Positions 3,290 to 32,447 of a DNA stretch of 64,000 bases are shown piece after piece (position 1 is the stretch's first letter; every line of letters begins with the position of its first letter). The notes below the pieces were generated by a model. The model was given only the letters and a program-made list of their open reading frames with translations. It did not search any database and was not told where the DNA came from. This DNA is from an uncultured Chloroflexia bacterium. GTDB lineage: Bacteria; Chloroflexota; Limnocylindria; QHBO01. The stretch is taken from contig CAWFCQ010000003.1 in NCBI GenBank assembly GCA_963814375.1, forward strand, positions 103,393 to 167,392, read 5' to 3'. The translations under genes were made by a program, and so were the position numbers.

Positions 3290-3342
3290 GGCCGGAAACG
3301 TGAGGTGCGATCCCCCGTCGGATGGTGGCGGACCCGCCACGG

Positions 3343-3882: not shown

Positions 3883-4052
3883 CGTTCGTACGCCTTCCTG
3901 CGCCGGATCATACCAATCAGGCGGCGCGTGCTGGCGCGGGGTGCTTTCTGCTGGACTCCCCTTGTGACACGGGCCTACGATGCGCGCGGCTTCACGTGCC
4001 GAGCAACGGAGGTGCAGAGCGTGACGTCCTCGCACGGGCGCGCCTCGCGACG

Positions 4053-9259: not shown

Positions 9260-11109
9260 GCAGCGACGGGGAGGGCAGGACCAAGGTGCAGCGGCGCGAG
9301 ACGACCGACGACCTGGATGCGCTCATGGAGGCCCTGCCGCCGGAGATCGTGGCGCGCCTGGCCGGGCTGGCGAATCGGACGGATCTGCTCGAGGTGGTGA
9401 TGGACCTCGGGCGGCGTCCCGAGGCGCGCTTCACGACCGGCGAGGAAGACCTCCTCGACCGCGAGGTCACTGACGCCGACATCGCCCACGTCATCGATCA
9501 CATCGGCGTGTTCGGCGACGACAACCGGGCCGGCATCGAGCGCACCCTCCATCGCATCAGCGCCATCCGCAACCGCTCCGGCAAGGTCGTGGGCCTGACG
9601 TGCCGCATCGGCCGAGCGGTGTTCGGGACGATCGACATCATCCGCGACATCACCGAGGCCGGACAGTCGCTGCTCATCCTCGGACGGCCCGGCGTCGGCA
9701 AGACGACGATGCTGCGCGAGGTGGCCCGCGTCCTCGCCGACGACCTGGGCAAGCGCGTCGTGGTGGTCGATACGAGCAACGAGATCGCCGGCGACGGCGA
9801 CATCCCGCACCCGGGCATCGGCGATGCCCGGCGCATGCAGGTCCGCACTCCGACCGAGCAGCACGCGGTGATGATCGAGGCGGTCGAGAACCACATGCCG
9901 GAGGTGATCGTCATCGACGAGATCGGGACCGAGCTCGAGGCCGGTGCAGCGCGCACCATCGCCGAGCGCGGTGTGCAGCTGGTCGGGACAGCCCACGGCA
10001 ACACGCTCGACAACCTGATGCTGAACCCAACGCTGTCGGACCTCGTGGGCGGCATTCAGCCGGTGACCCTCGGCGACGAGGAGGCGCGCCGGCGCGGGAC
10101 GCAAAAGACCGTCCTTGAGCGCAAGGCGCCGCCGACGTTCGATGTCCTGGTCGAGATCGTCGAGCGCGACAACGTCATCGTCCACCGCAACGTAGCCGAG
10201 ACGGTCGACGCCATCCTCCGCGGGCACATGGTGCCTCCGGAAGCGCGCTACCGCGACGAGCGCGGTGACCTGAAGGCCGCGACGAAGTACGACTACCGGA
10301 TCAGCGAGACCTCGTCCGGCAACCCGGCATTCGCACCGCTCGAGCCGACAGGTGGCTTCGGCGCCTTCGGGCGCGGCCGCTCGGCCGGTGGAGGCGGCGG
10401 CGCGCGCTACGAGCGCGCCGGATTGCGTCCGCTCCCCGGTGGCGGCTCCGGAAACTTCGGTGGTGAGGCGCGCGGAGCGCGAGCACTCCCCGGCGAGCGC
10501 CTCTCCGGCGCAGCGGCCGGCGGCGATGATCGCAATCCGCGACGCGAGCTGGAGCAGGCGCTGGCCGAGATGGACGATCGCGCCGCGCTCGACCGGCCGA
10601 TCGGCGCGCAGCGACCGAAGGACGAGCGGGCGCAGGCGCATCGGCCGATGAGCGTCTTCGCCTTCGGCGTCAGCCGCAAGCGGCTGGAGCAGGCGGTTCG
10701 CGAGCTCGGTGTCCCCGTCAACGTGGCGCGCGACCTCGACGAGGCGGACGCGGTCGTGACCCTGCGCAACTACTACAAGCGCAAGCCGGCAGCGCTGCGC
10801 GACGCCGAGTCCAACGGCGTGCCGATCTATGTGCTCAAGACGAACACCACTCTCCAGATGGGGAGCATGCTCGCGTCGCTGTTCGACCTGGAGGCCGATC
10901 CGCAGGAGGCCGCGCTGCGCGAGACGGCCGAGGCGATCGGGCTGGTGCAGGCCTCCGGCCGGCCGGTCGAGCTCGCGCCGCAGAACGCCTACGTCCGCCG
11001 GCTCCAGCACCAGATGGCCGAGCGCAACGCGCTCATGAGCCGATCGCGAGGCTCCGAGCCGAACCGGCGCGTCGAGCTGATCCCCGAGGACGGCGGGCGC
11101 TGGAGGTGA
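9256..11109 (+). CDS. R3H domain-containing AAA ATPase (Ycf45/SpoIIIAA-like)
   Basis: Walker A (LGRPGVGKTT), Walker B (VIVIDEIG) and SpoIIIAA-like collinearity. The C-terminal R3H-like domain includes RRLQH. A Gly-rich low-complexity linker sits between the domains. Confidence 0.7.
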   Translation: MSSDGEGRTKVQRRETTDDLDALMEALPPEIVARLAGLANRTDLLEVVMDLGRRPEARFTTGEEDLLDREVTDADIAHVIDHIGVFGDDNRAGIERTLHRISAIRNRSGKVVGLTCRIGRAVFGTIDIIRDITEAGQSLLILGRPGVGKTTMLREVARVLADDLGKRVVVVDTSNEIAGDGDIPHPGIGDARRMQVRTPTEQHAVMIEAVENHMPEVIVIDEIGTELEAGAARTIAERGVQLVGTAHGNTLDNLMLNPTLSDLVGGIQPVTLGDEEARRRGTQKTVLERKAPPTFDVLVEIVERDNVIVHRNVAETVDAILRGHMVPPEARYRDERGDLKAATKYDYRISETSSGNPAFAPLEPTGGFGAFGRGRSAGGGGGARYERAGLRPLPGGGSGNFGGEARGARALPGERLSGAAAGGDDRNPRRELEQALAEMDDRAALDRPIGAQRPKDERAQAHRPMSVFAFGVSRKRLEQAVRELGVPVNVARDLDEADAVVTLRNYYKRKPAALRDAESNGVPIYVLKTNTTLQMGSMLASLFDLEADPQEAALRETAEAIGLVQASGRPVELAPQNAYVRRLQHQMAERNALMSRSRGSEPNRRVELIPEDGGRWR

Positions 11110-15228: not shown

Positions 15229-15378
15229 TGTGGCGGGATGAGCGTGGATCGGCGCCAGGGTCCCCCTGCTAGACTGTGATCGAGGCGCCCGCCTCGTGCA
15301 GCGTCTCGCCAACGATTGACAACATCGCGGACCGCGAGGTCCGCTCAGCAATCACCGCGCGTTGCGACCGGAGTGGAG

Positions 15379-15738
15379 ATGGATCACACCGGACTGCTCT
15401 ACGTCATCGGTTTCGGGTTCGCCGCGACGACGTTCGTCTTCGGGACGATCCTGTTCAGCTGGCTGATCACCCATCGGCGCCGCAGCCCTCAGAAGGGCCT
15501 CCCGTACGAGTCGGGCGTCGACACCATCGGTGACACCTGGAGCCGGTTCGGACTGGCCTTCTATCTGTACGCCCTGCTCTTCGTGGCCTTCGACGTCGAG
15601 ATCATCTTCGTCTACCTGTGGGCCATCACGGTGCGGGCCATCGAGTTCCAGGGGATCGTCCTGATCGGCATCTTCCTTGCGATCTTGATGTTCGGCGAGC
15701 TGTACGCGTGGAAGAAGGGGGACCTGCGATGGCAATAG
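15379..15738 (+). CDS. nuoA: NADH-quinone oxidoreductase subunit A
   Basis: About 120 aa with three TM helices ([14 protein letters not shown] ... [16 protein letters not shown]) and the NuoA/ND3 pattern. First gene of the nuo cluster. Confidence 0.85.
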
Positions 15739-16409
15739 ACCGAACGCCTCCGAGCGGCCACACCGAACCGCCCACGTCCGGAACCGAGCTCGTCGCCAAC
15801 GACGGCGGGGGGCAGATCATCATCCCCGAGGGCGCGGGCGACGCCGATCTGCTGCGCCCGTTCGGGATGGAGGAGCATCCGCAGGGCGGGTTCCACGGCC
15901 TGCTCGAGGTGATTCCGACCAAAGCCGACCTCATCCTCGACCTGATCCGGGCGAACTCGCTATGGCCGCTCCTCTCGGGCCTGTCGTGCTGCGCGATCGA
16001 GATGATGAGCACGGCCACGAGCGTCAACGACATCGACCGATTCGGCTCGTTTCCGTTCCGTGCCAGCCCGCGACAGGCCGATGTTCTGATCGTGGCGGGG
16101 ACACTCACGACCAAGATGGCCGGGCCGCTCGTGCGCCTCTGGGAGCAGATGCCCGAGCCGAAATGGGTCGTGGCGATGGGGACCTGCACGACATCCGGCG
16201 GCCGCTTCAAGCGCTCCTACTCGGTCGTCCAGGGAGTCGACCGGGTCATGCCCGTCGATGTCTACGTGCCGGGCTGCCCGCCGCGCCCGGAGGGCCTCAT
16301 CTACGGGATGATGAAGCTCCACGAGCTCGTGAAGCAGCGGCGCGGCGAATGGAGCACGTTCGTCGACCGCGGACCGCAGCGGACGCGCTGGGAAGGAGAC
16401 GTTCGCTGA
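15728..16409 (+). CDS. nuoB: NADH-quinone oxidoreductase subunit B
   Basis: N2-cluster cysteines (SCCAIEMM ... GTCTTSGG ... VPGCPPRPE). The ATG overlaps the nuoA stop. Confidence 0.9.
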
Positions 16410-17047
16410 GCACGCCCGCGACCGCAGGCTCGCTCGTCCGAACCCTCACCGAGCGCCTGGGCCCCGACGTCGGCGACCTCTGGACCGATGAGGACACCGT
16501 CGAGTTCTCGATCGACGGTGCGCGCAACCTCGAGGTCCTGGCGCAGCTGCGCGACGATCCCGACCTCGGCTTCTTCATGCTGGCCGACGAGGCTGCCGTG
16601 GACTACGGCGTCGGCGCCCACTTCGAGGTGGTGTATCACCTGTTCAGCTGGAAGCACCCCGCCTGGCTTCGCGTGCGCGCCAAGGTCGACCGCGCCGACC
16701 CGCGCATCCGCTCCGTTACCCACCTGTGGGAGGGCGCGATGTTTCACGAGCGCGAGGCCTACGACATGATGGGCATCGTGTTCGAAGGCAACCGCGACCT
16801 GCGCCGGATCTACATGTCGCCCGACTACCGCAGCTTCCCGCAGCGTCGCGACTTCATCCTGCCCGACGACGCCGCCGACTCGCCCGCCGCCGGCGTCAAT
16901 CCGCTGGAGCGACCGGAGACGTGGGACCTTGCCCGCTTCCGTGACGCGCCGGCGGTGACGTATCCACCCGCGTCCGAGCGTGAGGACGCGCCGGCCGAGC
17001 GGGTCGAGTCTGGCGAGACGCTGGCCGATCGGAGCCGGCCGCGATGA
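16349..17047 (+). CDS. nuoC: NADH-quinone oxidoreductase subunit C
   Basis: NuoC/30-kDa subunit blocks (FEVVYHLFS ... [20 protein letters not shown]). The only in-frame ATG lies inside nuoB at 16349, so the start is uncertain. Confidence 0.75.
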
Positions 17048-18327
17048 CGACGACTGATCCGGAGGTCCGCATCCCGGACCCGATCGAGCTCGACCGGGCC
17101 GAGGAGGCCCGCCTGCGTGCCGCCTCCGGTTTGACGCCGCCCGTCGAGCGGCGGCCCGAGTACGCCGGCTTCGAGTCGGTCGGGATCCCGGACCGGCCGC
17201 CGCAGACGGACCGCGAGCGAGACGTCTACAGCCTCGAGGAGGGCGAGATGCTCCTCAACATGGGGCCACAGCATCCGTCCACCCACGGTGTCATGCGCCT
17301 GGTCGTGAAGGTGCGCGGCGAGGTCATCATCGACATCGACCCGGTGCTCGGCTACCTCCATCGCGGGATCGAGAAGCTGTGCGAGAACGCGACCTACACG
17401 ACCGTGCTCACCTACGTCGACCCGATGGACTACCTCGGCACGATGCACAACGAACACGCCCCGGCCATCGCCTTCGAGAAGCTGTACGGCATCCGGCCGC
17501 CGAAGCGGGCCGAGTACATCCGCGCGCTGGTGGTGGAGCTGAACCGCATCTTCAGCCACGGCCTGATGATGGGCTTCCTGGCGCTCGACATGGGCGGGCT
17601 GACCCCGATCCTCTACAGCTTCATCAACCGCGACGAGATCGTCGACATGCTGTCGGCCATCAGCGGACAGCGGATGCTCTTCAACTTCTTCCGCGTCGGC
17701 GGCGTGAACTGGGACACCAACGACGAGTTCCTCTCGCGGCTGGGGACGTGGCGCGGCACCGTCATGAAGAACATCGAGATGAACGAGCGGATGATCACGG
17801 AGAACGAGATCTTCACCGCCCGGACGCGCGGGATGGGCGTCCTGACCGGCGACGAGGCCATCTCGCTCGGTGTCACCGGCCCGAACCTGCGAGCGTCCGG
17901 CGTGCCGTTCGACGTGCGCAAGGCCCACCCGTACTCGATCTACCACGAGCTCGAGTTCGACGTCATCACCCACCAGACCGGCGACTCGTACGCCCGCTAC
18001 CTCCAGCGCATCGCCGAGGTCAAGCAGAGCATCCACCTCATCGACCAGATCGTGGACCGCATGCCGCACGGCGCGGTGCAGGCCCAGGTGCCGGGCATCA
18101 TTCGCCCCAAGCCGGGCCGCGCCTACGGCGCCGTCGAGTCGCCGCGCGGGCTCTACAGCGTCTACGCCATCAGCGATGGCGGGCCCAACCCGTATCGGTT
18201 CCGAATGCGCGACCCGTCGTTCATCAGCCTCCAGGCGCTGCCCAAGGTCATGCCAGGCAAGCTCATCGCCGACACGATGGCGGTGATGGCCAGCTTCGAC
18301 CCGGTCATGGGCGGCGTGGACAAGTAG
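17044..18327 (+). CDS. nuoD: NADH-quinone oxidoreductase subunit D
   Basis: 427 aa. NuoD/49-kDa signature (MLLNMGPQHPSTHGVMRL, IEKLCE, RMRDPSFISLQALP). Confidence 0.9.
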   Translation: MTTTDPEVRIPDPIELDRAEEARLRAASGLTPPVERRPEYAGFESVGIPDRPPQTDRERDVYSLEEGEMLLNMGPQHPSTHGVMRLVVKVRGEVIIDIDPVLGYLHRGIEKLCENATYTTVLTYVDPMDYLGTMHNEHAPAIAFEKLYGIRPPKRAEYIRALVVELNRIFSHGLMMGFLALDMGGLTPILYSFINRDEIVDMLSAISGQRMLFNFFRVGGVNWDTNDEFLSRLGTWRGTVMKNIEMNERMITENEIFTARTRGMGVLTGDEAISLGVTGPNLRASGVPFDVRKAHPYSIYHELEFDVITHQTGDSYARYLQRIAEVKQSIHLIDQIVDRMPHGAVQAQVPGIIRPKPGRAYGAVESPRGLYSVYAISDGGPNPYRFRMRDPSFISLQALPKVMPGKLIADTMAVMASFDPVMGGVDK

Positions 18328-18354: not shown

Positions 18355-19365
18355 ATGGACTGGGAGCTCGTCCTCGGCCTCGGGCGCTTCGTGCTTGCCA
18401 CGACGCTGATCCTGCTGCTCACCGTGCCGACCGCGTTCGTGATCATCCAGATGGAGATGAAGATCATCGCCCAGCTGGCGCTGCGCTTCGGGCCGAACCG
18501 GATCGGTCCGCGCGGCATTTTCCAGAGCACCATCCACGGCTTCAAGGTGCTCGCCAAGGAGGACACCGTCCCCGACCAGGCCGACCGGGTCGCCTTCACG
18601 ATGGCCCCCTGGATGGTGTACATGGCGGCGGCGATGAGCATGCTCGTCATGCCCTTCGCGCCCGGGGCGATCGCGGCCGACATGAACATCGGCATCGTCT
18701 ACTTCTTCGCCGTCCTCGGTCTCTCGGTGGTCGGCCTGCTCGTGGCCGGGTGGGCCAGCTACAACAAGTACTCGCTGCTCGGCGGGCTGCGCTCCGCGGC
18801 GCAGATGGTGAGCTACGAGATCCCGCTGACCCTGTCCATCGTCGGGGCGGTCGTCCTGGCCGGGACCCTCAGCTTCAGCGAGCTCATCGCCTGGCAGCTG
18901 GAGCACGGCTGGCTGCTCTGGTGGCAGCCGGTCGGCCTCGCCATCTTCTACGTCGCCAGCCTGGCCGAGATCAACCGCACTCCGTTCGACATGGTCGAGG
19001 CCGACAGCGAGCTGGTGGCGGGCCCGTTCACCGAGTACTCCGGGATGCGCTTCGGCTTCTTCTTCTTCGCTGAGTACGTCGCGCTGTTCATCATGAGCGG
19101 CATCCTCATCAGCCTCTTCTTCGGCGGCTGGCTGGCGCCGTGGCCATTTCCGGCCCAGCTGGGCGGGTTCGCCGGGACGCTGTACGGCATCTTTTGGTTC
19201 TTCCTCAAGACCTACATCTTCGTGGCGATCGCGGTCTGGCTGCGCGGCACCCTGCCCCGCGTCCGGGTCGACCAGCTGATGGGCATGGCCTGGAAGGTCC
19301 TGCTGCCGCTGGCGCTCATCAACCTGTTCGTCACGGCCATCGCGGTCGTCGTCTTCGAGCTGTAG
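18355..19365 (+). CDS. nuoH: NADH-quinone oxidoreductase subunit H
   Basis: 336-aa polytopic membrane protein with NuoH/ND1 motifs (RFGPNRIGP, GWASYNKYSLLGGLR, EYSGMRFGFFF). Confidence 0.9.
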   Translation: MDWELVLGLGRFVLATTLILLLTVPTAFVIIQMEMKIIAQLALRFGPNRIGPRGIFQSTIHGFKVLAKEDTVPDQADRVAFTMAPWMVYMAAAMSMLVMPFAPGAIAADMNIGIVYFFAVLGLSVVGLLVAGWASYNKYSLLGGLRSAAQMVSYEIPLTLSIVGAVVLAGTLSFSELIAWQLEHGWLLWWQPVGLAIFYVASLAEINRTPFDMVEADSELVAGPFTEYSGMRFGFFFFAEYVALFIMSGILISLFFGGWLAPWPFPAQLGGFAGTLYGIFWFFLKTYIFVAIAVWLRGTLPRVRVDQLMGMAWKVLLPLALINLFVTAIAVVVFEL

Positions 19366-19377
19366 GAGGACGGACCG

Positions 19378-20217
19378 ATGGCGTTCCCCGGTGCCGGCAT
19401 CGCCAAGGGCATGGCCACGACATTCCGCAACTTCTTCGCGCCCAAGGTGACGCGCCAGTACCCCGAGGAGCGGCCCCAGATCCCCGATCGCTGGCGCGGT
19501 CGGCTCGACCTGATCTACGACCCCTTCGGCGAGCACAAGTGCGAGGTCTGCTTCCAGTGCGCGCAGGTCTGCCCGGTCGAGGCCATCGACATGAGCGGAT
19601 TCGACTCGACCGGGAACCGGATCCGATACGGCCTGCCCGAGATCTACGACGAGCGCAAGGACGCCAACGCCTACCGCCGAGCGGGTCTGCCGGCTCGGCC
19701 GATGCGCAACGCCGCGCGCTGGGATGAGGCCGTCGACACGCCGTGGGTCGACGAGACGATCGACGCCTTCGGCGGCCGATCCGAGGCTCTGGTCGCGATC
19801 TTCCGGGCCGTCCAGGATCGCTACGGCTACCTGCCCGAGCATGCGCTGCGTCGGATCAGCGATCGGCTGACGATCCACTGGGCACAGGTCTTCGGCGCCG
19901 CCGGGCTGGGCGGCTTCCGCCTGCTCCCGGCCGGCGGCCACGTCATCACCGTGTGTGACTGTGCCGCCTGCCGCTTCGCGGGCGGCAGCGCGGTCCTGGC
20001 GGCGGTCGAGAGCGAGCTCGGCATCCGGGCGGGCGAGGAGACCCCGGACGGGACCTTCAGCCTGGAGCGCGGCACCGATGTCGGCGCGGGCTCGCTGAGC
20101 CCGGCGATCCGCATCGACACCCTCGTATTCGGGCCGGTCGACGCCGCCAAGGCTCGGCACATCGTCGGAGAGCGCCGCGCCACCGCAGCGCGCCCTGCGA
20201 GCGGGGCCGTCAGCTGA
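19378..20217 (+). CDS. nuoI: fused NuoI-like (single 4Fe-4S) / NuoE-like (thioredoxin-fold) subunit
   Basis: The N-terminus is NuoI-like (VTRQYPEERP ... CEVCFQCAQVCPVEAIDM) but carries only one CxxCxxCxxxCP motif. The C-terminal ~150 aa resemble NuoE (ALVAIFRAVQDRYGYLPEHAL ... GGHVITVCDCAACRFAGGSAVL ... TPDGTFSLERGTDVG), and the second NuoE Cys pair is absent. Confidence 0.75.
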   Translation: MAFPGAGIAKGMATTFRNFFAPKVTRQYPEERPQIPDRWRGRLDLIYDPFGEHKCEVCFQCAQVCPVEAIDMSGFDSTGNRIRYGLPEIYDERKDANAYRRAGLPARPMRNAARWDEAVDTPWVDETIDAFGGRSEALVAIFRAVQDRYGYLPEHALRRISDRLTIHWAQVFGAAGLGGFRLLPAGGHVITVCDCAACRFAGGSAVLAAVESELGIRAGEETPDGTFSLERGTDVGAGSLSPAIRIDTLVFGPVDAAKARHIVGERRATAARPASGAVS

Positions 20218-21569
20218 TGGCCAGCACGATCTCCCCCCAGATCAGCATTCTGCCCGGCGGCGAGCACCGCCTGCTGACCGACATCGGTCGGGTCGACCCT
20301 ACGAGCCTCGCCAGCTATCGCGAGCGCGGCGGGTACGGCGGCCTCGAGCGTGCGGTCACACGCCTCGCTCCAGAGGAGGTCATCGGTGAAATCGAGGCAG
20401 CCGGGCTACGCGGCCGCGGAGGCTCCGGCTACTCGACCGGCGCGAAGTGGCGCGTCGCGCGGGAGGCGCCCGGCGACCGCACGATCGTCGTCGCCAACCT
20501 CATGGGCGCGGATCCGAGCGCCCTCGGCGATCGGGCCCTGGCCGAGGGCAATCCGCACCTGGTCGTCGAGGGCGCGCTGATCGCCGCCTATGCCGTCGGA
20601 GCAACCGAGGCGATCATCGCCGTCCGCCGCGACTGGACCGATGCGATCGCGCGGCTCCGGGCCGCCGCGGCCGAGGCGACCGAGGCGCACCTGGCCGGCT
20701 ACCTCGTGCTTGGCACCGACACGAGCATCCAGCTCAGCGTGTGGGAAGGGTCCGGGGCGTACGTCGCGGGAGAGGAGACAGCGCTGCTGAACGCCCTGGC
20801 CGGCGACCGCGGCATGCCGGCCATTCGTCCGCCGTATCCGGCCACGCGCGGCCTGGGAGACGCACCGACCGTCGTCCAGAACGGCGAGACCCTGGCGCAT
20901 GTCGCGTGGATCCTGTCGCACTCGGCGGAGGCGTTCGCATCGGTCGGCAGCGCGGCCAGCCGGGGCACGAAGCTGGTCACGGTCATGGGGCGGGTCGGCG
21001 AGCCCGGCCTGGTCGAGGTCCCGCTGGGCACCTCGCTGCTCGACATCGTAACCCTCGCCGGCGGCGGCACCGGCGCGAGCAAGGCGGCCTTCGTGGGCGG
21101 GCCGGGCGGTGGCGCGATCGAGTCCGGCGCGTTCAGCGGCACGCCATACGACTACGAGGCGCTCGAGGCCGCCGGCGCGATCATCGGCTCGGGCGCCGTC
21201 CTCGTGGTGGATGCGGCAACCTGCATGGTCGACAGCGCTCGATTCTTCGTCGACTTCAGCGCCCGAGAGGCGTGCGGCAAGGCCGTCCCGTGCCGCATCG
21301 GTACCAAGCGCCTGGTCGAGGGGCTCGACCGCATCCTGGCCGGGACGCCCCGACCGAACGACTTCAATCTTCTCCGCGAGCTCTCGCGCAAGATGAGCGA
21401 CACGGCGCTGTGCAAGCTCGAGCGCCTGGCGCCGGGACCGATCCTCACGACGCTCGATCGGTTCGGCGACGAGTACCGGGCGCATGCCGAGCGCGGCGAG
21501 TGCCTGGCCGGCGCCTGCGCCACCGGCGGGCTGCCGCCCCTCATCTCCCCGTTGGCCGGGCTAGAGTAG
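20217..21569 (+). CDS. nuoF: NADH-quinone oxidoreductase subunit F (divergent)
   Basis: NuoF/51-kDa collinearity: FMN-site region GRGGSGYSTGAKW, NADH-site GEETALLNALAG, SLBB domain. The N3 cluster region reads EACGKAVPCRIG rather than the canonical CGKCxPC. Confidence 0.8.
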   Translation: MASTISPQISILPGGEHRLLTDIGRVDPTSLASYRERGGYGGLERAVTRLAPEEVIGEIEAAGLRGRGGSGYSTGAKWRVAREAPGDRTIVVANLMGADPSALGDRALAEGNPHLVVEGALIAAYAVGATEAIIAVRRDWTDAIARLRAAAAEATEAHLAGYLVLGTDTSIQLSVWEGSGAYVAGEETALLNALAGDRGMPAIRPPYPATRGLGDAPTVVQNGETLAHVAWILSHSAEAFASVGSAASRGTKLVTVMGRVGEPGLVEVPLGTSLLDIVTLAGGGTGASKAAFVGGPGGGAIESGAFSGTPYDYEALEAAGAIIGSGAVLVVDAATCMVDSARFFVDFSAREACGKAVPCRIGTKRLVEGLDRILAGTPRPNDFNLLRELSRKMSDTALCKLERLAPGPILTTLDRFGDEYRAHAERGECLAGACATGGLPPLISPLAGLE

Positions 21570-21575
21570 GCCGCG

Positions 21576-23963
21576 ATGAGCTTCGGCACGACGAACGGCC
21601 ACCCCACCAACGGCAATGGCGCCGGTGACGGCAAGGTCACCGACTACACGCCTATCTGGCCGATGGTGCCCGGGACCCGGAAGATCGCCGTCACCATCAA
21701 CGGCGCCCAGGTCGAGGCCGAGGAGGGCCAGACCATCCTCCAGGCCTGCCGGGTGCTCGGCATCGAGGTCCCGACGCTGTGCTACGAGCCGAAGCTGGCG
21801 CCCTACGGGGCATGCCGCATCTGCGCGGTTGAGGTCGAGGGCCAGGACGACACGCCGATCTCGTGCGGTACCGCGATCACCGAGGGGATGGTCATCACCA
21901 CCCACTCCGACCGGGTCGTCGAGAACCGTCGGATGGTGCTCGAGCTCATCTTCAGTGACCACGACGCGTACTGCCTGCCGCCCTGCCAGTTCAAGTGCCC
22001 GACCCGGGTCGACATTCCGGGCTACCTGAAGCAGAACACCCTGGGCAACTGGGAGGAGGCGACGCGCATCCTGAAGCGCTCCCTCCCGTTCCCGGCCATC
22101 CTCGGCCGCGTCTGCCCGGCGCCGTGCGAGACGCACTGCCGGCGCGAGGAAGTCGACACCGCCATCGCCATCCGCGACTCGCATCGGTACTGCGCCGACC
22201 GTGTGCTCGAAGTCGACGCTCCCGCGCCGATCCCGTGGCCGAAGGAGCCGGACACCGGGCGTCGAGTCGCGGTCATCGGCGCCGGCCCGGCCGGCATGAG
22301 CGTCGCCTACTATCTCCAGCTGCGCGGGCACCACTGCGACGTCTTCGAGGCCGATCCTGAGCAGGGCGGCATGCTCCGCTACGGGATCCCGCAGTACCGC
22401 CTGCCGAAGGGCTGGATGGACCGCGAGCTCAACCACGTGTGGGAGCTGGGCGCGACCTTCCGCCCGAACATGCGGCTCGGGCGCGACTTCCATCTCGGCG
22501 ACATCATCGACGAGTACGACGCGATCTACGTCGGCATCGGCTGCTACAAGCCGAACGAGCTCGGGATCCCGGGCGAGGAAGCCGACGGCATGGTCAACGC
22601 GTTGGAGAACCTCTACAACTCGACGCGCGGAATTCCCGTGCCGCGGCTGAAGGGCGCGCGGGTGGTCGTCATCGGCGGGGGCTTCACGGCCATCGACTGC
22701 ACGCGGACCTCGGTGCGTCAGGGCGCCGCGGAGGTGACGCTCGTCTACCGCCGCGACCTGAAGGACATGCCCGCCGCGGACGAGGCGCACGAGGCGATCG
22801 AGGAGGGAGCGCGCCTCATCTTCCAGGCGGCGCCTACACGCATCGTCACCGACAACAAGAACAAGGTCACCGGCGTCGAGTTCCAGCGCATGAAGCTGGG
22901 CGAGCCGGACGCCCAGGGCCGCCGCCGACCGGAGCCGATGCCGGGCACCGAGTTCATCGTCGAGTGCGACACCGTCCTCGGCGCCATCGGCCAGGGTCCG
23001 GAGCTGTCCTGGATCGAGTCGGAGCCCGACGAGCTCAAGGCCGGCCTCGAGGTCGACCGCCGCGGCAACCTCGTCAGCGAGGAGCACATCTTCCGCACCA
23101 ACGTGCCGAAGATCTTCGCCTCCGGCGACGTGCGCACCGGCGCCGCCACCGTGGTGGAAGCGATCGGCGAGGGTCGCCGCGCCTCGTACGCGATGGACTA
23201 CTGGCTGCGCGGCCACGACCTCGACGACCCGCAGGTGCGGCGCATCGTCACCGAGCCGCAGCCCAACTTCCTCACGATCGTGCCCTTCACCGACGACGTG
23301 AAGGAGCCGCGGGCGATCATGGGCAAGCAGGAGGCGGACGAGCGCAAGGGCAACTTCAACGAGTACGAGTTCGGCTACACCGGCGACCAGGCCATGGCCG
23401 AGGCGTCGCGCTGCCTCCAGTGCACCTGTGAGGCGATCGGCCACTGCGACCTGCGCGAGGCGGCGATCGAGTACGAGACGACGCTCAACATGGCGATCGA
23501 CGAGCGCTCGATCCAGGACAACCCGTACGTCGGCGTCAACCACGGCTACGGCCGCGACGAGACCCACTCCTTCATCCTGCGCGACTACTCGCGCTGCATC
23601 GACTGCGGTCGATGCGCCCAGGTGTGCAAGGAGATCGTCGGCGCCGGCTGCTATGACTTCATCGGCAAGGGCTTCGACTCGCTGGTCACCACCGCCGACT
23701 ACGTCAGCCTCAACGAGACGCCGTGCGTTTCCTGCGGCCGATGCGCGGAGACCTGCCCCGTCGGCGCCCTCATGCCGCGCCCGCGCATCCTCGAGACCTA
23801 CCAGCTCGACGTGTCGCGCTGCATCTTCTGCGGCATCTGCGCCGATGCCTGCCCGTACGACGCCCTGCGCTGCGGCCCCGAGTTCGAGTTCAGCGAGTAT
23901 CAGCGCGACCTGCCCATGCTCGACATCCTCGAGATGTCCGACCGGGAGCGACCTACCCGCTAG
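21576..23963 (+). CDS. chimeric NuoG-like iron-sulfur flavoprotein (2Fe-2S + GltD-like FAD/NAD(P) domain + 2x4Fe-4S ferredoxin)
   Basis: The N-terminal ~150 aa match the NuoG N1b/N5 region (CYEPKLAPYGACRICAVEVEG ... HDAYCLPPCQFKCP). The middle is GltD-like, i.e. glutamate-synthase-small-subunit-like (two dinucleotide folds, VAVIGAGPAGMS and VVVIGGGFTAIDCTR). The C-terminus carries two CxxCxxCxxxCP motifs (CVSCGRCAETCP, CIFCGICADACP). No molybdopterin-like domain is present. Confidence 0.7.
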   Translation: MSFGTTNGHPTNGNGAGDGKVTDYTPIWPMVPGTRKIAVTINGAQVEAEEGQTILQACRVLGIEVPTLCYEPKLAPYGACRICAVEVEGQDDTPISCGTAITEGMVITTHSDRVVENRRMVLELIFSDHDAYCLPPCQFKCPTRVDIPGYLKQNTLGNWEEATRILKRSLPFPAILGRVCPAPCETHCRREEVDTAIAIRDSHRYCADRVLEVDAPAPIPWPKEPDTGRRVAVIGAGPAGMSVAYYLQLRGHHCDVFEADPEQGGMLRYGIPQYRLPKGWMDRELNHVWELGATFRPNMRLGRDFHLGDIIDEYDAIYVGIGCYKPNELGIPGEEADGMVNALENLYNSTRGIPVPRLKGARVVVIGGGFTAIDCTRTSVRQGAAEVTLVYRRDLKDMPAADEAHEAIEEGARLIFQAAPTRIVTDNKNKVTGVEFQRMKLGEPDAQGRRRPEPMPGTEFIVECDTVLGAIGQGPELSWIESEPDELKAGLEVDRRGNLVSEEHIFRTNVPKIFASGDVRTGAATVVEAIGEGRRASYAMDYWLRGHDLDDPQVRRIVTEPQPNFLTIVPFTDDVKEPRAIMGKQEADERKGNFNEYEFGYTGDQAMAEASRCLQCTCEAIGHCDLREAAIEYETTLNMAIDERSIQDNPYVGVNHGYGRDETHSFILRDYSRCIDCGRCAQVCKEIVGAGCYDFIGKGFDSLVTTADYVSLNETPCVSCGRCAETCPVGALMPRPRILETYQLDVSRCIFCGICADACPYDALRCGPEFEFSEYQRDLPMLDILEMSDRERPTR

Positions 23964-23989
23964 ACCGGTGCGGCGGGCGGCGTTGATGG

Positions 23990-24040
23990 GCTCCCGGAAG
24001 TGTCGGCGGCTCGCGCTTCGCTAGCTCGCCGGCGACCCTT
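23990..24040. terminator. long imperfect hairpin between convergent nuoG-like and lipoprotein genes (possible bidirectional terminator, no U-tract)
   Basis: Inverted repeat ccggaag-gtcgGcgg ... ccgGcgac-cttccgg, read directly from the sequence. GC-rich genomes often lack the U-tract. Confidence 0.25.
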
Positions 24041-24163
24041 CCGGCCGCTGCCCGAACCGCTTGGAGATCGTGTTTTATTCGATGGCGGCCGTGAGCCACC
24101 AGGTCCGCCACCGCCGTGCGCCGACCCGCGGTCCTGCGAGTAGGGGCGCGCGGGCGACTGTTC

Positions 24164-24535
24164 TCAGAACTTGTTCAGGTTGACCTGCCACTCGTCGCAG
24201 TCGCTGACGACGGTGATGGTGTACTCGCCCTCGATCAGGTCGTTCACGAACGAGGTCGTGACGCGCTGCTGCTGCTCGTAGGTGAAGCCACCGTCGACCG
24301 AGGTGATCGAGACGACGACGTCCTCGCAGGTTGGTGCGGTGTACGAGAGGCGGTAGCGACCTGCCTGAAGCGGGAACGTCGTCCCCTCCTCGTCCTCCGA
24401 CGTCGCTCTCGCGGCCTCGGGAAATTCCGAGGCGCCGTCATCGCCGCCTCCGCCACCACCACCTCCGCCGCACGCGGCGAGAAGCACGGTCAACGAAAGG
24501 AGCGCGAGCAGCGTGGTCCGTCTCAGCATCTCCAC
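24164..24535 (-). CDS. small secreted lipoprotein (signal peptide + lipobox LAAC, poly-Gly linker)
   Basis: 123-aa ORF beginning MEMLRRTTLLALLSLTVLLAACGGGGGGGGG. It is antisense to the nuo cluster and sits between the nuoG-like gene and nuoJ. Confidence 0.55.
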   Translation of the reverse strand: MEMLRRTTLLALLSLTVLLAACGGGGGGGGGDDGASEFPEAARATSEDEEGTTFPLQAGRYRLSYTAPTCEDVVVSITSVDGGFTYEQQQRVTTSFVNDLIEGEYTITVVSDCDEWQVNLNKF

Positions 24536-24702
24536 GGGTCCTCCTACCCTCCAGAGCTCGGGGTTGGTCCGTTACGGGGAACCGCTTTGCTGTTGTGTGC
24601 GCGCTACCTTAGGCGAGCCCTCGACCGCCGCGCAATGGATTCGGCCGCTACGCTAGAATCGAGCGCGGCCCAGGATCGGGCCGCGAACGCTCGAACCTTC
24701 CT

Positions 24703-25227
24703 GTGGGAGCCACGGCCCTGGACATCTCCAGCGTTCTTTTTTACCTGCTCGCGATCGGCGTCGTGGGCGCCGGGCTCGCGGTGGTCACGCTGCGCAACAT
24801 CATCCACTCGGCCGTGGCGATGATGGTCTGCTTCGGTTCACTGGCTGGCATGTACGCCCTCCTGGGTGCTCCGATCGTGGCTGCCGCGCAGGTGCTCATC
24901 TACCTCGGCGCGATCAGCGTCCTGATCCTCTTCGCCATCATGCTCACCCAGGCGGGCGACGCGAACCTGCCCGCGCCGTTCCACCGACAGCTGCCGATCG
25001 CGGTCGTGGTCGCCCTTGCGGTCACCGGCCTGGTCGGATGGGCGGTGGTCCAGACCGACTGGCAGATGGCCGCCGAGGTCACCGGCGCCGCGGTCGAGGC
25101 CATTGCGACGGCTGTCTTCACGACCTATGCGCTGCCGTTCGAGATCATCAGCCTGCTTCTCCTCGTCGCGATCATCGGTGCCATCTTCCTGGCGCGCCGC
25201 CCGGAAGAGGACGAGCGCGCGAACTGA
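24703..25227 (+). CDS. nuoJ: NADH-quinone oxidoreductase subunit J
   Basis: 174-aa membrane protein with the NuoJ/ND6 pattern (LIYLGAISVLILFAIML). Confidence 0.85.
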   Translation: MGATALDISSVLFYLLAIGVVGAGLAVVTLRNIIHSAVAMMVCFGSLAGMYALLGAPIVAAAQVLIYLGAISVLILFAIMLTQAGDANLPAPFHRQLPIAVVVALAVTGLVGWAVVQTDWQMAAEVTGAAVEAIATAVFTTYALPFEIISLLLLVAIIGAIFLARRPEEDERAN

Positions 25228-25230
25228 CCG

Positions 25231-25536
25231 ATGGGGATCCAGGGCTATCTCATCGTCTCGGCGCTGCTGTTCGGCATCGGCGCGTTCGGGTTCATGGTGC
25301 GCCGCAACGCGATCCTCATGCTCATCAGCATCGAGCTCATGTTCAACGCGGTGAACCTGAGCCTCGTGGCCTTCAACGCCTATCTCCCGCCCGATGCGAA
25401 TGCCGGCGCCGTCTTCGCGCTCATGATCATGGCCGTCGCCGCCGCCGAGGTGACGGTCGGGCTGGCCCTCGTGATCGCGATCATCCGTACGCGCCAGACG
25501 GCCGAGGTCGACCAGTACGCCGATCTGAAGGAGTAG
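25231..25536 (+). CDS. nuoK: NADH-quinone oxidoreductase subunit K
   Basis: 101 aa with three TM helices. NuoK/ND4L motifs (MLISIELMFNAVNL, AAAEVTVGLALV). Confidence 0.9.
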   Translation: MGIQGYLIVSALLFGIGAFGFMVRRNAILMLISIELMFNAVNLSLVAFNAYLPPDANAGAVFALMIMAVAAAEVTVGLALVIAIIRTRQTAEVDQYADLKE

Positions 25537-25540
25537 CCCG

Positions 25541-27739
25541 ATGCCCATCGAGCTGCTGATCGCCCTCATTCCGGCGCTGCCCCTCGCCGGGTTCCTGTTC
25601 GCCGTGCTCGTCGGGCCGCGCATCGACCGCGTCCCGTCCCACGGTCACGACGAGCATCACGACGACGGCCACGCGAGCCACGATGATCACGGGCCGATCG
25701 ACGACTCGAGCTTCCGCGGCATCCCGACCGAGGAGGAGCAGGCGGCGACCAGCCCGCACGCCGGGCACGCCGACGATCTCGCCAATGCCGAGGGCGCCGC
25801 CGGCGTCATTCCCGCCGACATGAACGACGGCCTCGGGCAGGCCGGGCACGTGACCCCGGGCGGCCCGAAGCCTCGCTACCTGTCGTGGATCGTGCCGACC
25901 GGCCTGGTCGGGATCGGCTGGGTCATCAGCATGATCGTCGTCGCCGACGTGATCTTCGGCGGCAACGAGTACGAGGTGACGCTCTACGAGTGGATCGCAT
26001 CGGGCGACTTCCACGTCGAGATCAGCTTCCTCGTTGACAGCCTCACGGCGATGCTCCTGCTGGTCGTGAGCACGGTCGGGTTCCTCGTGCACGTCTACAG
26101 CATCGGCTACATGGACGGCGACCGCGGGTTCTGGCGCTTCTTCGCCTACCTCAACCTGTTCATGTTCTCGATGCTGCTCCTCATCCTGGGCGACAACTTC
26201 CTGATGCTGTACGTCGGCTGGGAGGCGGTCGGCCTGTGCAGCTACGCGCTCATCGGCTTCTGGTACAAGAAGCCGTCGGCGGCGGGAGCCGCCAAGAAGG
26301 CGTTCGTCGTCAACCGCATCGGCGACCTGGGCTTCGGCCTGGGCGTGATGATGATCTGGGTCAACCTCGGCACGCTGAGCTTCCACGAGGTTTTCGAGAC
26401 CATCGGCACGCTCGACGAGGGCACGGTGACGGTCATCGCCCTCCTGCTCTTCGCCGGCGCCGTGGGCAAGTCAGCCCAGTTTCCGCTCCACGTCTGGCTG
26501 CCGGATGCCATGGAAGGGCCGACCCCCGTCAGCGCCCTCATCCACGCCGCGACGATGGTCAACGCCGGCGTGTACATGGTCGCTCGCGCCAACCCGATCT
26601 TCGCCGAGGCGCCGACCGCGATGCTGACCGTCGCCACCATCGGCGCATTCACCGCCATCTTCGCCGCGGCCATCGCACTGACCCAGAACGACATCAAGAA
26701 GGTCCTCGCCTACAGCACCGTCAGCCAGCTGGCCTACATGTTCCTGGCGCTCGGTGTCGGAGCCTGGGTCTCGGCCATCTTCCACCTCGTCAGCCACGGC
26801 TTCTTCAAGGGCCTGCTGTTCATGGGCTCCGGCTCCGTCATCCACGGGGCCGGCGGCGAGCAGGACATGCGGTACATGGGCAACCTGCGGGCGAGGATGC
26901 GCTGGACCTACGTGACGATGGTCATCGGCTCGCTGGCCCTGGCCGGCATCCCGCTCTTCGCCGGCTTCTTCAGCAAGGACGAGATCCTGGCCGAGACCTT
27001 CAACCGCGGCTACTACGTCTTCTACCTGATCGGCGTGATCGTGGCCTTCATGACCGCCTTCTACACGTTCCGGATGATCTTCATGACGTTCTGGGGTGAG
27101 TGGCGCGGGCCGGCCGCGATCTGGGAGCACGTCCACGAGAGCGCGGTGACCATGGTCGCGCCGCTCGTGCTCCTGTCGGTGCCCACGATCTTCGCCGGGC
27201 TTCTGCTGGGCATCCCGCCGGAGGGCGGCGTCATCCACACCTGGCTGGAGGAGGTCTTCCACGCTTCGGAGGAGGCCGGAGCGGGCATCCAGCCGGGCTC
27301 GATCGCAGCGACGAGCCACGAGGGGTTCCAGCTCCTCGGCTTCGGCGGCCTGCTGCTCGGCAGCGGCGCGCTGGTGGCGGCGCTCGGCGTCTGGCTGGCC
27401 TATCGCTGGTACGTCCGTGATCCCGAGGCGCCGGCCCGCTTCGTCGAGCGCTTCCCAGCCGGGCTCGGCCCGGGGATGTATCGGGCCAGCGTCAACAAGT
27501 ACTACGTCGACGACATTTACGGGCTCGTGTTTGCCCGTGGCGGCGTCCTGCTGGCCGAGGCGCTGTGGTGGTTCGACGCGAGGATCATCGACGGCATCGT
27601 GAACGGCGCCGGCTGGCTGGCCTCGACCATCGGTGGTGGCCTGCGCAAGGTCCAGACCGGACGGGTCGAGAACTACGGGCTCGGCATCGCGGCCGGGCTG
27701 GCCGTGGTGCTCCTCGCCTACGCGACGGTGGTGCGCTGA
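25541..27739 (+). CDS. nuoL: NADH-quinone oxidoreductase subunit L with a His/Asp-rich N-proximal insertion
   Basis: 732 aa with NuoL/ND5 antiporter-like motifs (YVGWEAVGLCSYALIGFW, QFPLHVWLPDAMEGPTPVSALIHAATMV). A ~100-aa low-complexity insertion (HGHDEHHDDGHASHDDHGP ...) follows TM1. Confidence 0.9.
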   Translation: MPIELLIALIPALPLAGFLFAVLVGPRIDRVPSHGHDEHHDDGHASHDDHGPIDDSSFRGIPTEEEQAATSPHAGHADDLANAEGAAGVIPADMNDGLGQAGHVTPGGPKPRYLSWIVPTGLVGIGWVISMIVVADVIFGGNEYEVTLYEWIASGDFHVEISFLVDSLTAMLLLVVSTVGFLVHVYSIGYMDGDRGFWRFFAYLNLFMFSMLLLILGDNFLMLYVGWEAVGLCSYALIGFWYKKPSAAGAAKKAFVVNRIGDLGFGLGVMMIWVNLGTLSFHEVFETIGTLDEGTVTVIALLLFAGAVGKSAQFPLHVWLPDAMEGPTPVSALIHAATMVNAGVYMVARANPIFAEAPTAMLTVATIGAFTAIFAAAIALTQNDIKKVLAYSTVSQLAYMFLALGVGAWVSAIFHLVSHGFFKGLLFMGSGSVIHGAGGEQDMRYMGNLRARMRWTYVTMVIGSLALAGIPLFAGFFSKDEILAETFNRGYYVFYLIGVIVAFMTAFYTFRMIFMTFWGEWRGPAAIWEHVHESAVTMVAPLVLLSVPTIFAGLLLGIPPEGGVIHTWLEEVFHASEEAGAGIQPGSIAATSHEGFQLLGFGGLLLGSGALVAALGVWLAYRWYVRDPEAPARFVERFPAGLGPGMYRASVNKYYVDDIYGLVFARGGVLLAEALWWFDARIIDGIVNGAGWLASTIGGGLRKVQTGRVENYGLGIAAGLAVVLLAYATVVR

Positions 27740-29259
27740 TGGACGGCGTCCCCCTGCTCACCCTGATCGTCTTCATGCCCGCACTCGGCGCGCTCCTCCT
27801 GCTGTTCGTGCCGGCCGACAACCATCGCGCCATCCGATGGATCGCCCTCGCCACGGCGCTGCTCACCTTTGCGCTCAGCCTGGTCCTGCTCGGCTACAAC
27901 CCCGACGGCAGCGAGTTCCAGTTCCGCGAGGACCTCGAGTGGATCGACTTCTTCGGCATGCGCTACACGCTCGGCGTGGACGGCATCAGCGTCGTGCTGG
28001 TGATCCTGACCACGCTGCTGAGCGTCGTGGCCATCCGCTACAGCTGGGAGCCGATCCAGACGAAGGTGCGGGCCTACTACGCCACGATGCTGGTGCTGAT
28101 GGTCGGCATGCTCGGCGTGTTCGTCGCCCTCGACCTCTTCCTCTTCTACGTCTTCTGGGAAGTCAGCCTCTTCCCGATGTACTTCGTCATCGGCGTCTGG
28201 GGCGGCCCGCGTCGCATCTACGCCACGGTGAAGTTCGTCATCTACACCCTGGTCGGCTCGCTGCTCATGCTCGTCGCCATCCTGGCCGTGGCGATCGCGT
28301 ACGCATCGGCCGGCAACCCGTTCACCTTCAGCTACGAGGCGCTCCGCGGCTTCGCCTACGCCGATTCGCTCCAGGCCGTCGCATTCATCGCCTTCTTCCT
28401 CGCCTTCGCCATCAAGGTGCCGATGTGGCCGCTCCACACCTGGCTGCCCGATGCGCACGTCGAGGCCCCCACCGCCGGCTCGATCATCCTGGCTGGCGTG
28501 CTGCTCAAGCTCGGCGGCTACGGCTTCCTGCGCTACAACCTGCCGCTCCTGCCCGATGCCGCCGTGACCTTCGCGCCGATCATCATCGGGTTGAGCATCA
28601 TCGCCATCATCTACGGCGGCCTGGTGGCGATGGTGCAGCCCGACATGAAGAAGCTGGTGGCGTACTCGAGCGTGAGCCACATGGGCTTCGTCATGCTCGG
28701 CGCGTTCGTCTTCAACACCCAGGGCCTCCAGGGCGCCGTCTACCAGATGATCAGCCACGGCATCACGACCGGTGCGCTGTTCCTGCTGGTGGGCATCATC
28801 TACGAGCAGACCCACGATCGCGAGATCTCGCACATGGGCGGCCTCAACGCCCGGCTGCCCCACTACGCGGCCATGTTCGGCCTCTTCACCTTCGCCAGCA
28901 TCGGGCTGCCTGGGCTGTCGGGGTTCATCGGCGAGTTCCTCGTCATCTTGGGCGCCTTCGAGTCGAACGGCTTCGTGGCGGCGGCGGCGATGGTGGTGGT
29001 CATCATCAGCGCGGTCTACATGCTGTGGATGTTCCAGCGCGTCTTCTTCACTGTGCCATCCGATTGGATGCGCCGATGGTGGCCGTCGCTGCGCGACATG
29101 AGCAGCGGCGAGTGGCAGTCGCTCGCGCCGCTGGTGGTGCTGGTCGTGGCGCTGGGGGTCTATCCCGGACCGATCCTCGAGATCATCAGCGCGCCGGTCG
29201 AGCGAATCATCGAGGCGGTCAACGGCGCCGGGCTCACCGGCCTCGGGCCGCTGTGGTGA
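27739..29259 (+). CDS. nuoM: NADH-quinone oxidoreductase subunit M
   Basis: NuoM/ND4 motifs (FFLAFAIKVPMWPLHTWLPDAHVEAPTAGS). The start MDGVPLL overlaps the nuoL stop (TGATG). Confidence 0.9.
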   Translation: MDGVPLLTLIVFMPALGALLLLFVPADNHRAIRWIALATALLTFALSLVLLGYNPDGSEFQFREDLEWIDFFGMRYTLGVDGISVVLVILTTLLSVVAIRYSWEPIQTKVRAYYATMLVLMVGMLGVFVALDLFLFYVFWEVSLFPMYFVIGVWGGPRRIYATVKFVIYTLVGSLLMLVAILAVAIAYASAGNPFTFSYEALRGFAYADSLQAVAFIAFFLAFAIKVPMWPLHTWLPDAHVEAPTAGSIILAGVLLKLGGYGFLRYNLPLLPDAAVTFAPIIIGLSIIAIIYGGLVAMVQPDMKKLVAYSSVSHMGFVMLGAFVFNTQGLQGAVYQMISHGITTGALFLLVGIIYEQTHDREISHMGGLNARLPHYAAMFGLFTFASIGLPGLSGFIGEFLVILGAFESNGFVAAAAMVVVIISAVYMLWMFQRVFFTVPSDWMRRWWPSLRDMSSGEWQSLAPLVVLVVALGVYPGPILEIISAPVERIIEAVNGAGLTGLGPLW

Positions 29260-32253: not shown

Positions 32254-32447
32254 CGTGGCCCCGCCACTCGCGATATGTCGCGGCCGATGCACCAGAGGCG
32301 ATCCCGAGGTGCTGTTCCCACGATGTTTCGCGGCCCGGCACGCCTGAGCAGCACCTCCGGGTGGCGCTCAGGCATGGCAGCCGCGCGATGGATCGCGAGA
32401 ATGCAACCCGCGGACGCCTTCTGGTGAAGTGGCCGCGATCAATCGCG

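Follow-up and report, generated by a model that had tools for sequence, protein, structure and literature searches.

A probable split NuoI enclosing an Nfn/Stn-type NAD(P)H-oxidising cassette in the complex I operon of Limnocylindria

Organisation of the locus

The window analysed here is a stretch of 64,000 nucleotides (nt) from an uncultured Chloroflexia bacterium of the Limnocylindria (Chloroflexota; assembly GCA_963814375.1, contig CAWFCQ010000003.1, positions 103,393 to 167,392 of the forward strand), and the subject of this report is the open reading frame (ORF) at 19378–20217 on its plus strand, which lies within a nuo operon for complex I. The ORF encodes a protein of 279 amino acids (aa), here called IE, and the operon reads nuoA-B-C-D-H-[I'::E]-F-[A::GltD::I'']-J-K-L-M-N, where I' and I'' are the N-terminal and C-terminal halves of NuoI and ::E is a NuoE-like domain; the 11-subunit-type nuo operon reads A-B-C-D-H-[I]-J-K-L-M-N. 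We consider, with a probability of about 75%, that the ORF is a piece of a naturally split NuoI, and that three genes forming an NAD(P)H-oxidising cassette of Nfn/Stn (Bfu-family) type sit inside the nuoI slot, fused in frame at both ends.

All parts of the inserted region are on the plus strand. The NuoI N-half (IE aa 1–84, 19378–19629) begins 13 nt past the nuoH stop, and a linker (aa 85–124, 19630–19749; GxPEIYDERKD...RRaGlparPMRN) joins it to a NuoE/HydC/StnA-like domain of thioredoxin fold (aa 125–279, 19750–20217; Pfam PF01257). The IE stop overlaps the start of the next gene (TGATG, 20214–20219), which encodes F, a NuoF/BfuB-like flavoprotein of 450 aa (20217–21569) with Pfam domains Complex1_51K, SLBB and NADH_4Fe-4S. 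F lies between IE and GI, a protein of 795 aa (21576–23963). The first 737 aa of GI (21576–23786) are BfuA/StnC/NfnA-like (Pfam Fer2_4, Fer4_20, Pyr_redox_2 and Fer4_Nqo3; NCBIfam PRK12814, 550 bits), and aa 738–795 (23787–23963; ILETYQLDVSRCIFCGICADACPYDALRCGPEFEFSEYQRDL...) are the NuoI C-half. This half is the last nuo coding sequence ahead of nuoJ, from which it is separated here by a 740-bp spacer (23964–24702); elsewhere this variable spacer measures 72 bp to over 4 kb. The two halves thereby occupy the nuoI slot between nuoH and nuoJ.

The two halves of NuoI

The NuoI model TIGR01971 (121 positions, trusted cutoff 113.05 bits) was matched to both proteins. Its positions 1–70 fall on IE aa 11–81 with 57.0 bits, covering the NuoI-specific N-terminal region and one CxxCxxCxxxCP motif, CEVCFQCAQVCP (aa 55–66, nt 19540–19575); the N-half corresponds to E. 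coli NuoI 23–82. Where the second NuoI motif would be expected, IE aa 84–95 read YGLPEIYDERKD. The first-pass annotation of this DNA had described the ORF as a NuoI-NuoE fusion with a single 4Fe-4S motif, and this was borne out: the strings that it quoted were found, TIGR01971 and PF01257 place the two domains, and the assignments held when the protein was aligned with NuoI and NuoE.

The missing half of NuoI was found as the last 58 aa of GI, two genes downstream of IE. TIGR01971 positions 71–112 fall on GI aa 737–778 with 54.0 bits, and neither IE nor GI alone attains the trusted cutoff. The GI tail consists of a third, unpaired motif, CIFCGICADACP, followed by YDALRCGPEFEFSEYQRDL, and can be aligned with the second half of NuoI from bacteria (E. 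coli) and mitochondria. Since GI aa 667–732 already make up a complete Fer4_Nqo3 2x[4Fe-4S] domain (positions 4–66 of 67), the third motif of GI is an orphan, like the motif of IE. A correspondence of this third motif to residues ~690–700 of StnC/NfnA was considered and rejected; those residues are not homologous to it, being the CxxCxxxC start of a formate-dehydrogenase-like domain and holding no ferredoxin motif.

When IE aa 1–84 and GI aa 738–795 were rejoined in silico into a sequence of 142 aa, this matched TIGR01971 positions 1–112 with 114.6 bits, just over the cutoff of 113.05. It also matched E. coli NuoI 23–128 in a single stretch (E 2e-26) with a gap of two residues at the junction, while each half alone gave an E value of ~1e-12. 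A search confined to the 64-kb window found no further NuoI-like sequence. All eight NuoI cysteines are present and invariant, four on IE and four on GI. In the 2x[4Fe-4S] ferredoxin fold, each cluster is held by three cysteines of one motif and the fourth of the other, and a lone CxxCxxCxxxCP motif cannot complete a cluster, but two half-domains can. As the halves are complementary and each cubane draws cysteines from both motifs, NuoI is best described as split and not truncated, and the two halves probably reassemble into a normal 2x[4Fe-4S] fold. The earlier proposal that NuoI had lost a cluster was not upheld, as the second motif and the rest of NuoI lie on the C-terminus of GI and the halves, once rejoined, reach the score of a complete NuoI.

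Canonical NuoI (Nqo9/TYKY/NDUFS8) has the same N-terminal region, both CxxCxxCxxxCP motifs and the same C-terminal segment, and the halves are colinear with residues 23–128 of the E. coli protein. Here, in contrast, these parts are divided between two polypeptides, each half being fused to a subunit of the input module, with ~4.1 kb of coding sequence between them.

Conservation and distant relatives

A scan of species-representative genomes found 158 relatives. The best 80 of these 158, to which all counts out of 80 refer, are from metagenome-assembled genomes of Limnocylindria (Chloroflexota); the C-terminal region of GI was compared in 51 genomes and the motifs of F in 70. The order D-H-[I'::E]-F was observed in all 80 genomes, with [A::GltD::I''] following wherever the contig reaches it. 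Cys55, Cys58, Cys61 and Cys65 of IE are present in 80 of 80, as are Cys193, Cys195 and Cys198, and the GxPEIYDERKD stretch of the linker is nearly invariant. The cysteines noted as missing from IE are not an assembly artefact, a possibility that the first-pass annotation had raised, because the same residues occur in all 80 genomes. GI aa 656–795, which include the NuoI C-half, are essentially invariant.

The ratio of nonsynonymous to synonymous substitution rates (dN/dS), computed for the regions of IE against 79 orthologues, was 0.12 in both the NuoI half and the linker and 0.29 in the NuoE domain; every part of IE is under purifying selection. Median identity across genomes was 91.6% for GI, 86% for NuoH, 83% for NuoD, 80% for IE and 77% for F, making GI the most conserved protein of the operon. 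Limnocylindria with this operon were recovered mostly from soil and other environmental metagenome assemblies.

More distant I'::E fusions exist, with 30–38% identity. At one such locus, L081, the order is nuoH, I'::E, an E::F::GltD fusion of 1048 aa, a HoxU-like protein of 265 aa, and nuoJKLM. The HoxU-like protein ends in ...CIYCGLCVESCPHDAL (also given as ...ILEGYRLDLSSCIYCGLCVESCPHDAL), and GltD stands at the C-terminus of the E::F fusion (2076–5222) and is not inserted in the A subunit. At locus L082, from a second Chloroflexota group, the layout is that of the window. The nesting in these distant lineages excludes an artefact and, as the fusion topology varies, shows the split to be what stays constant in the arrangement.

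The inserted module

GI is built of an N-terminal 2Fe-2S domain, a GltD-like flavin adenine dinucleotide (FAD)/NAD(P)H domain that is inserted, together with its two 4Fe-4S clusters, into the His-cluster loop, and Fer4_Nqo3. Its aa 35–760 are colinear with the A-type subunits of three solved complexes: 9bov_A (1.5e-167) of Caldicellulosiruptor NfnABC (9bov/9bp5), 8oh5_C (1.7e-152) of Sporomusa ovata StnABC (8oh5), and 9n5u_A (4.6e-141) of Thermococcus NfnABC (9n5u). The best PDB matches of F were NfnB (9bov_B, 1e-121) and StnB (8oh5_B, 1e-117), with the NuoF of complex I at ~1e-76 to 1e-80, and those of the NuoE-like domain of IE were HydC, NfnC and StnA. Judged by these matches, all three inserted proteins have their nearest solved relatives among the StnABC/NfnABC (Bfu-family) transhydrogenases and not in NuoEFG of complex I.

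The A subunit of StnABC/NfnABC has the same layout of 2Fe-2S, GltD insert and 2x[4Fe-4S] as GI, but StnC and NfnA continue into a formate-dehydrogenase-like domain where GI has the NuoI C-half. Further differences are that the C-like subunit carries the NuoI N-half, that the genes are embedded in a nuo operon, and that the B-like subunit is without the N-terminal (B5) and C-terminal (B3/B4) domains. F aligns solely to StnB 96–524 of 584 and NfnB 119–535 of 602, thus leaving out the N- and C-terminal cluster domains of Bfu proteins, and no Fer4 Pfam match was found in its 450 aa. According to the structure paper on NfnABC, B3/B4 and the N-terminal domains of BfuB are missing in non-bifurcating relatives and are required for bifurcation (PMC11829005). 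Since F is without the B3/B4 ferredoxin domain, the enzyme is predicted to be non-bifurcating, and the absence of B3/B4 argues against an electron-bifurcating NADPH:NAD/ferredoxin activity.

The arrangement also differs from that of the canonical 14-subunit complex I, where nuoEFG lie between nuoD and nuoH; here the order is D-H-[I'E]-F-[A-GltD-I'']-J. Profile scans detected no molybdopterin-like C-terminal domain of NuoG in GI, the match of TIGR01973 covering aa 39–133 only. Complexes of the kinds Nuo-Bfu, Mbh-Bfu and Por-Bfu, with Bfu genes located inside the operons of their partners, were predicted by Schut et al. (2022; PMC9304861). Their Nuo-Bfu has 14 subunits, with a BfuB that carries a ferredoxin domain, and was reported in Deferribacteres, Proteobacteria, Planctomycetes and Nitrospirae (PMC9304861); F would fail the BfuB domain filter used there. 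The words 'NuoI', 'split' and 'fused' do not occur in that paper. No description of a split NuoI or of a GltD-bearing complex I turned up in the literature searched, which largely excluded subscription journals, the nearest being the predictions in PMC9304861. Within that literature, a complex I in which an Nfn-type input module is nested in a split NuoI is an undescribed variant.

The NuoE-like site

PF01257 matched IE aa 125–264 with 89.2 bits against a cutoff of 24.8, and the NCBIfam equivalog cutoffs were missed (HoxE, 89 versus 224; NuoE, 83.6 versus 141). The NuoE fold is intact: in an AlphaFold2 (AF2) model of IE built with an alignment of 94 sequences, aa 121–271 had predicted local distance difference test (pLDDT) values of 76–96, and Foldseek gave TM scores of 0.65–0.70 to HydC, StnA, NfnC and NuoE. 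The domain thus has the fold and the first ligand loop of canonical NuoE and other thioredoxin-like [2Fe-2S] ferredoxins, but Asp and Gly stand in place of the second cysteine pair and there is an extra cysteine.

In the first loop, VCDCAAC (aa 192–198, nt 19951–19971), alignment with canonical NuoE-like proteins showed that the first canonical pair, Cys193 and Cys198, is retained. The extra cysteine, Cys195, is specific to the lineage and lies two residues past the first ligand (C-x-C-x2-C); the three cysteines are encoded at nt 19954–19971. In the second loop, ERGTDVGAGS (aa 230–239), Asp234 and Gly238 (nt 20077–20091) replace the second pair, as the first-pass annotation had noticed, and the canonical ligand set C-x4-C ... 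C-x3-C is therefore absent from IE. Position 238 is Gly in all 80 genomes and never Cys. Position 234 is most often Asp (63 of the 80), then Glu (10) and Asn (4), which together cover 77.

Positions 193, 195, 198, 234 and 238 were then tabulated over 361 NuoE-like domains. The canonical pattern C-G-C-C-C, or the same with S, D, A or N at 195, was present in 93; C-C-C-C-S/A/T, in which the fourth cysteine is lost and Cys195 gained, in 119; and C-C-C-D-G with close variants, the type of the window, in 129. A single domain read C-C-C-C-C, a possible intermediate. Cys195 was observed in essentially all cases that lack the fourth canonical cysteine. This looks like a stepwise swap of ligands, in which Cys195 would have been gained, the fourth cysteine lost, and the cysteine at the third position then changed to Asp. 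The site thus appears to have been rewired (Cys193, Cys195 and Cys198 with Asp234) and not simply emptied, and may still hold a cluster. The claim that the NuoE-like domain had lost half of its ligands stands as far as the canonical second pair is concerned, but it overlooked Cys195 and so the presence of three invariant cysteines with Asp/Glu; the cluster may have been lost, but a 2Fe-2S site of three Cys and one Asp is no less likely. Two precedents for a changed ligand set in the same fold are cited in PMC11138216, the swapping of cysteine ligands in C. pasteurianum ferredoxin and the 2Cys/2His ligation of Apd1/Aim32.

The flavin side and electron entry

The N3/B1 motif of F reads CGKAVPC (aa 353–359, nt 21273–21293), with its second cysteine replaced. 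This residue is Ala in 70 of 70 Limnocylindria genomes and Thr in L082, while the canonical Cys is found in L081 and in L085, a soluble cluster described below. 3Fe-4S sites typically show such a CxxAxxC pattern. In a further lineage of P0160 type (locus L084, 953–2257) this cluster was altered independently: the motif reads CGRCVPGR, and the third cysteine is changed to Gly.

The NADEGDPG motif of the flavin/NADH pocket reads NLMGADPS in F (aa 94–101, nt 20496–20519), having lost its Asp and Glu; it is conserved as such in the 70 genomes and raises the question of whether flavin mononucleotide (FMN) and NADH are bound in the normal way. F retains GRGG.G..T..KW, GEETAL, three N3 cysteines, and Cys429 and Cys434. 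Taken together, the motif losses in F and the conservation of GI point to the GltD FAD as a possible main entry site for electrons, with the FMN branch perhaps remodelled or partly vestigial.

Proposed assembly

We propose that a cassette of an E-like 2Fe-2S subunit, an F-like FMN subunit and an A-like subunit with 2Fe-2S, GltD-FAD and several 4Fe-4S clusters was inserted in the nuoI slot. The NuoI N-half, with the helix that contacts the membrane arm and motif 1, would have become the N-terminus of the E-like protein, and the C-half, with motif 2 and the tail, the C-terminus of the A-like protein, replacing its formate-dehydrogenase-like domain. On NuoB, NuoD and NuoH the two halves would assemble as the N6a/N6b domain, each cluster being ligated from both polypeptides. 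The reassembled NuoI would then clamp the input module to the Q-module by both of its ends and substitute for the large C-terminal domain of NuoG, which serves as the anchor of the canonical N-module and is missing here.

Electrons from NAD(P)H would enter at the GltD FAD (YRR motif, probably NADPH) and/or at the NuoF-like FMN, and pass through the clusters of the A subunit to N6a/N6b, to N2 in NuoB and to quinone, with proton pumping by NuoL, NuoM and NuoN and no bifurcation. The side branch of the cluster chain in the A subunit, a dead end in Nfn, would be the point at which the module plugs in to the Q-module, because GI runs on there into the NuoI C-half. This electron path and the substrates are much less certain than the split and reassembly of NuoI. 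Gene order, domain content, the complementary fit of the halves, their conservation and the ligand patterns are observed; reassembly, the path of electrons, substrate specificity and whether the altered sites hold clusters are inferences.

Alternative explanations

An assembly or frameshift artefact, or a pseudogene, was rejected and has next to no probability, given that 80 independent genome assemblies and hundreds of metagenome proteins share the identical architecture, that dN/dS is well below 1, and that the IE stop overlaps the F start. It is also very unlikely that IE is a degenerate NuoI-NuoE fusion that truly lost one 4Fe-4S cluster of NuoI and the 2Fe-2S cluster of NuoE. IE alone does have a single motif and two canonical NuoE ligands, its NuoE domain evolves faster than its NuoI half (dN/dS 0.29 versus 0.12), and position 234 is not strictly Asp; but the missing half of NuoI lies 3.5 kb downstream, invariant and complementary on the model, a lone motif could not complete a cluster in this fold, Cys193, Cys195 and Cys198 are invariant, and Cys195 appears exactly when the fourth cysteine is gone. 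Another reading leaves the halves unpaired, with motifs 2 and 3 of GI (CVSCGRCAETCP and CIFCGICADACP) forming a NuoI-like dicluster and the IE motif being an orphan or a structural remnant. phmmer does align E. coli NuoI 56–128 to these two motifs together. Motifs 1 and 2 of GI, however, match the ferredoxin domain of NuoG/HydA/StnC and are colinear with StnC/NfnA, which leaves motif 3 without a partner; moreover, neither the IE motif nor the NuoI-specific N-terminal region varies, purifying selection on both is strong, and the rejoined sequence scores far above either half. We therefore regard unpaired halves as highly improbable.

Several points weigh against the split and reassembly of NuoI around a working input module. 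The AF2 single-sequence model of the rejoined NuoI had a pLDDT of 43 and is uninformative, and in the model of IE the NuoI half and linker reached a moderate 46–72 (linker 55–72). F has lost the N3/B1 cysteine and the pocket Asp and Glu, which may impair the FMN/NADH branch and makes the electron path uncertain. The substrate specificity rests on the VYRRD motif in the GltD domain of GI, which we take, from GltD-type enzymes, to suggest NADPH. A related alternative keeps the same architecture but makes the E- and F-like subunits mainly scaffolds, the GltD-like FAD (NADPH or NADH) being the sole productive input and FMN/B1/C1 vestigial. In its favour, no other protein of the operon is as conserved as GI (91.6%, versus 77% for F and 80% for IE), F lost the residues just named, and the E-like site lost two canonical ligands. 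Yet F keeps GRGG.G..T..KW, GEETAL, three N3 cysteines and Cys429/Cys434, and the substitutions are conserved and not drifting, with E and F under purifying selection (measured for IE). Such a scaffold role is possible, although we think it rather unlikely.

Significance and a possible general adaptor

Accounts of complex I usually present it as a fixed set of modules, and the recruitment of its NADH-oxidising N-module is an open evolutionary question. In the split-NuoI reading, an 11-subunit-type operon would have gained a different input module, of transhydrogenase ancestry and with an extra FAD/NAD(P)H site, by a mode of attachment of which we found no description, in which a conserved ferredoxin subunit with two clusters is divided and its halves are each joined to the module coming in. 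If the halves reassemble, they would form a natural split metalloprotein in which both clusters are built across a subunit interface, and the arrangement would be a second, independent way to wire a dehydrogenase onto the Q-module. The altered ligand sets beside the flavin offer testable cases of cluster ligation tuning the entry site. The variant is widespread in an uncultured bacterial class and hidden by the annotation 'subunit E'; as pipelines label IE only 'NADH:ubiquinone oxidoreductase subunit E', reconstructions of metabolism are likely to count nuoI as absent.

A soluble Por-Bfu-like cluster beside genes for pyruvate:ferredoxin oxidoreductase (PFOR) was observed at L085 (1804–7726) and also at L086. 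The E-like subunit at L085 starts with a single CxxCxxCxxxCP motif, and the GltD-bearing A subunit has a third motif, CIMCRECVGVCPVDAL, fused to a PFOR-beta/thiamine pyrophosphate domain. The same nesting in a split ferredoxin is thus seen in a different enzyme, which hints at a general adaptor. A joint reading, tentative and somewhat doubtful, would be that Nfn-type BfuABC modules of Chloroflexota have a general docking adaptor in the form of a split 2x[4Fe-4S] ferredoxin domain, its halves on the E-like N-terminus and the A-like C-terminus, nested in the ferredoxin subunit of the partner, which would be NuoI of complex I here and in L081/L082 and PFOR in L085. Limnocylindria would then represent an independent origin of an N-module, giving a proton-pumping NADPH(/NADH):quinone oxidoreductase whose canonical FMN-N3-N1a entry is being remodelled or abandoned for the GltD FAD.

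Other genes of the operon and its surroundings

The operon encodes the complex I core of the Q- and P-modules, NuoA, B, C, D, H, J, K, L, M and N, with NuoA and NuoK assigned by sequence and position only. The nuoA-like ORF (15316–15738, +), judged by eye, has three hydrophobic stretches, PYESG and FDVEIIF, and its start is probably internal. It is followed on the plus strand by nuoB (15618–16409; start probably near 15726; Pfam Oxidored_q6, 100 bits), whose product carries the N2 ligands CC...C...CP (GTCTTSGG ... GCPPRPE), by nuoC (15962–17047; real start later than listed; Complex1_30kDa at aa 184–301), nuoD (17044–18327; Complex1_49kDa, 281.6 bits) and nuoH (18355–19365; NADHdh, 357 bits).

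A small lipoprotein-like ORF on the minus strand (24164–24535), without a Pfam match and probably outside the complex, lies in the spacer ahead of nuoJ (24703–25227, +; Oxidored_q3). nuoK (25231–25536, +) adjoins nuoJ across loci, and the same slot in L081 matches Oxidored_q2. The plus strand continues with nuoL (25541–27739; Proton_antipo_N/M), nuoM (27565–29259; Proton_antipo_M, 255.7 bits; real start past the nuoL stop) and nuoN (29271–30731; Proton_antipo_M, 245.9 bits). NuoL has an N-terminal extension of ~150 aa before Proton_antipo_N (25541–26000), with a stretch rich in His and Asp, HGHDEHHDDGHASHDDHGP, that could bind metal.

Directly 3' of nuoN (30736–33279) are genes for a trehalose-6-phosphate synthase (Glyco_transf_20, +) and a trehalose phosphatase (−), an ordinary context. 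At 9256–11109, upstream of a thymidylate kinase gene and unrelated to the split NuoI, a protein of 617 aa is encoded that combines a SpoIIIAA-like AAA ATPase with phosphotyrosine-phosphatase-like and R3H domains.

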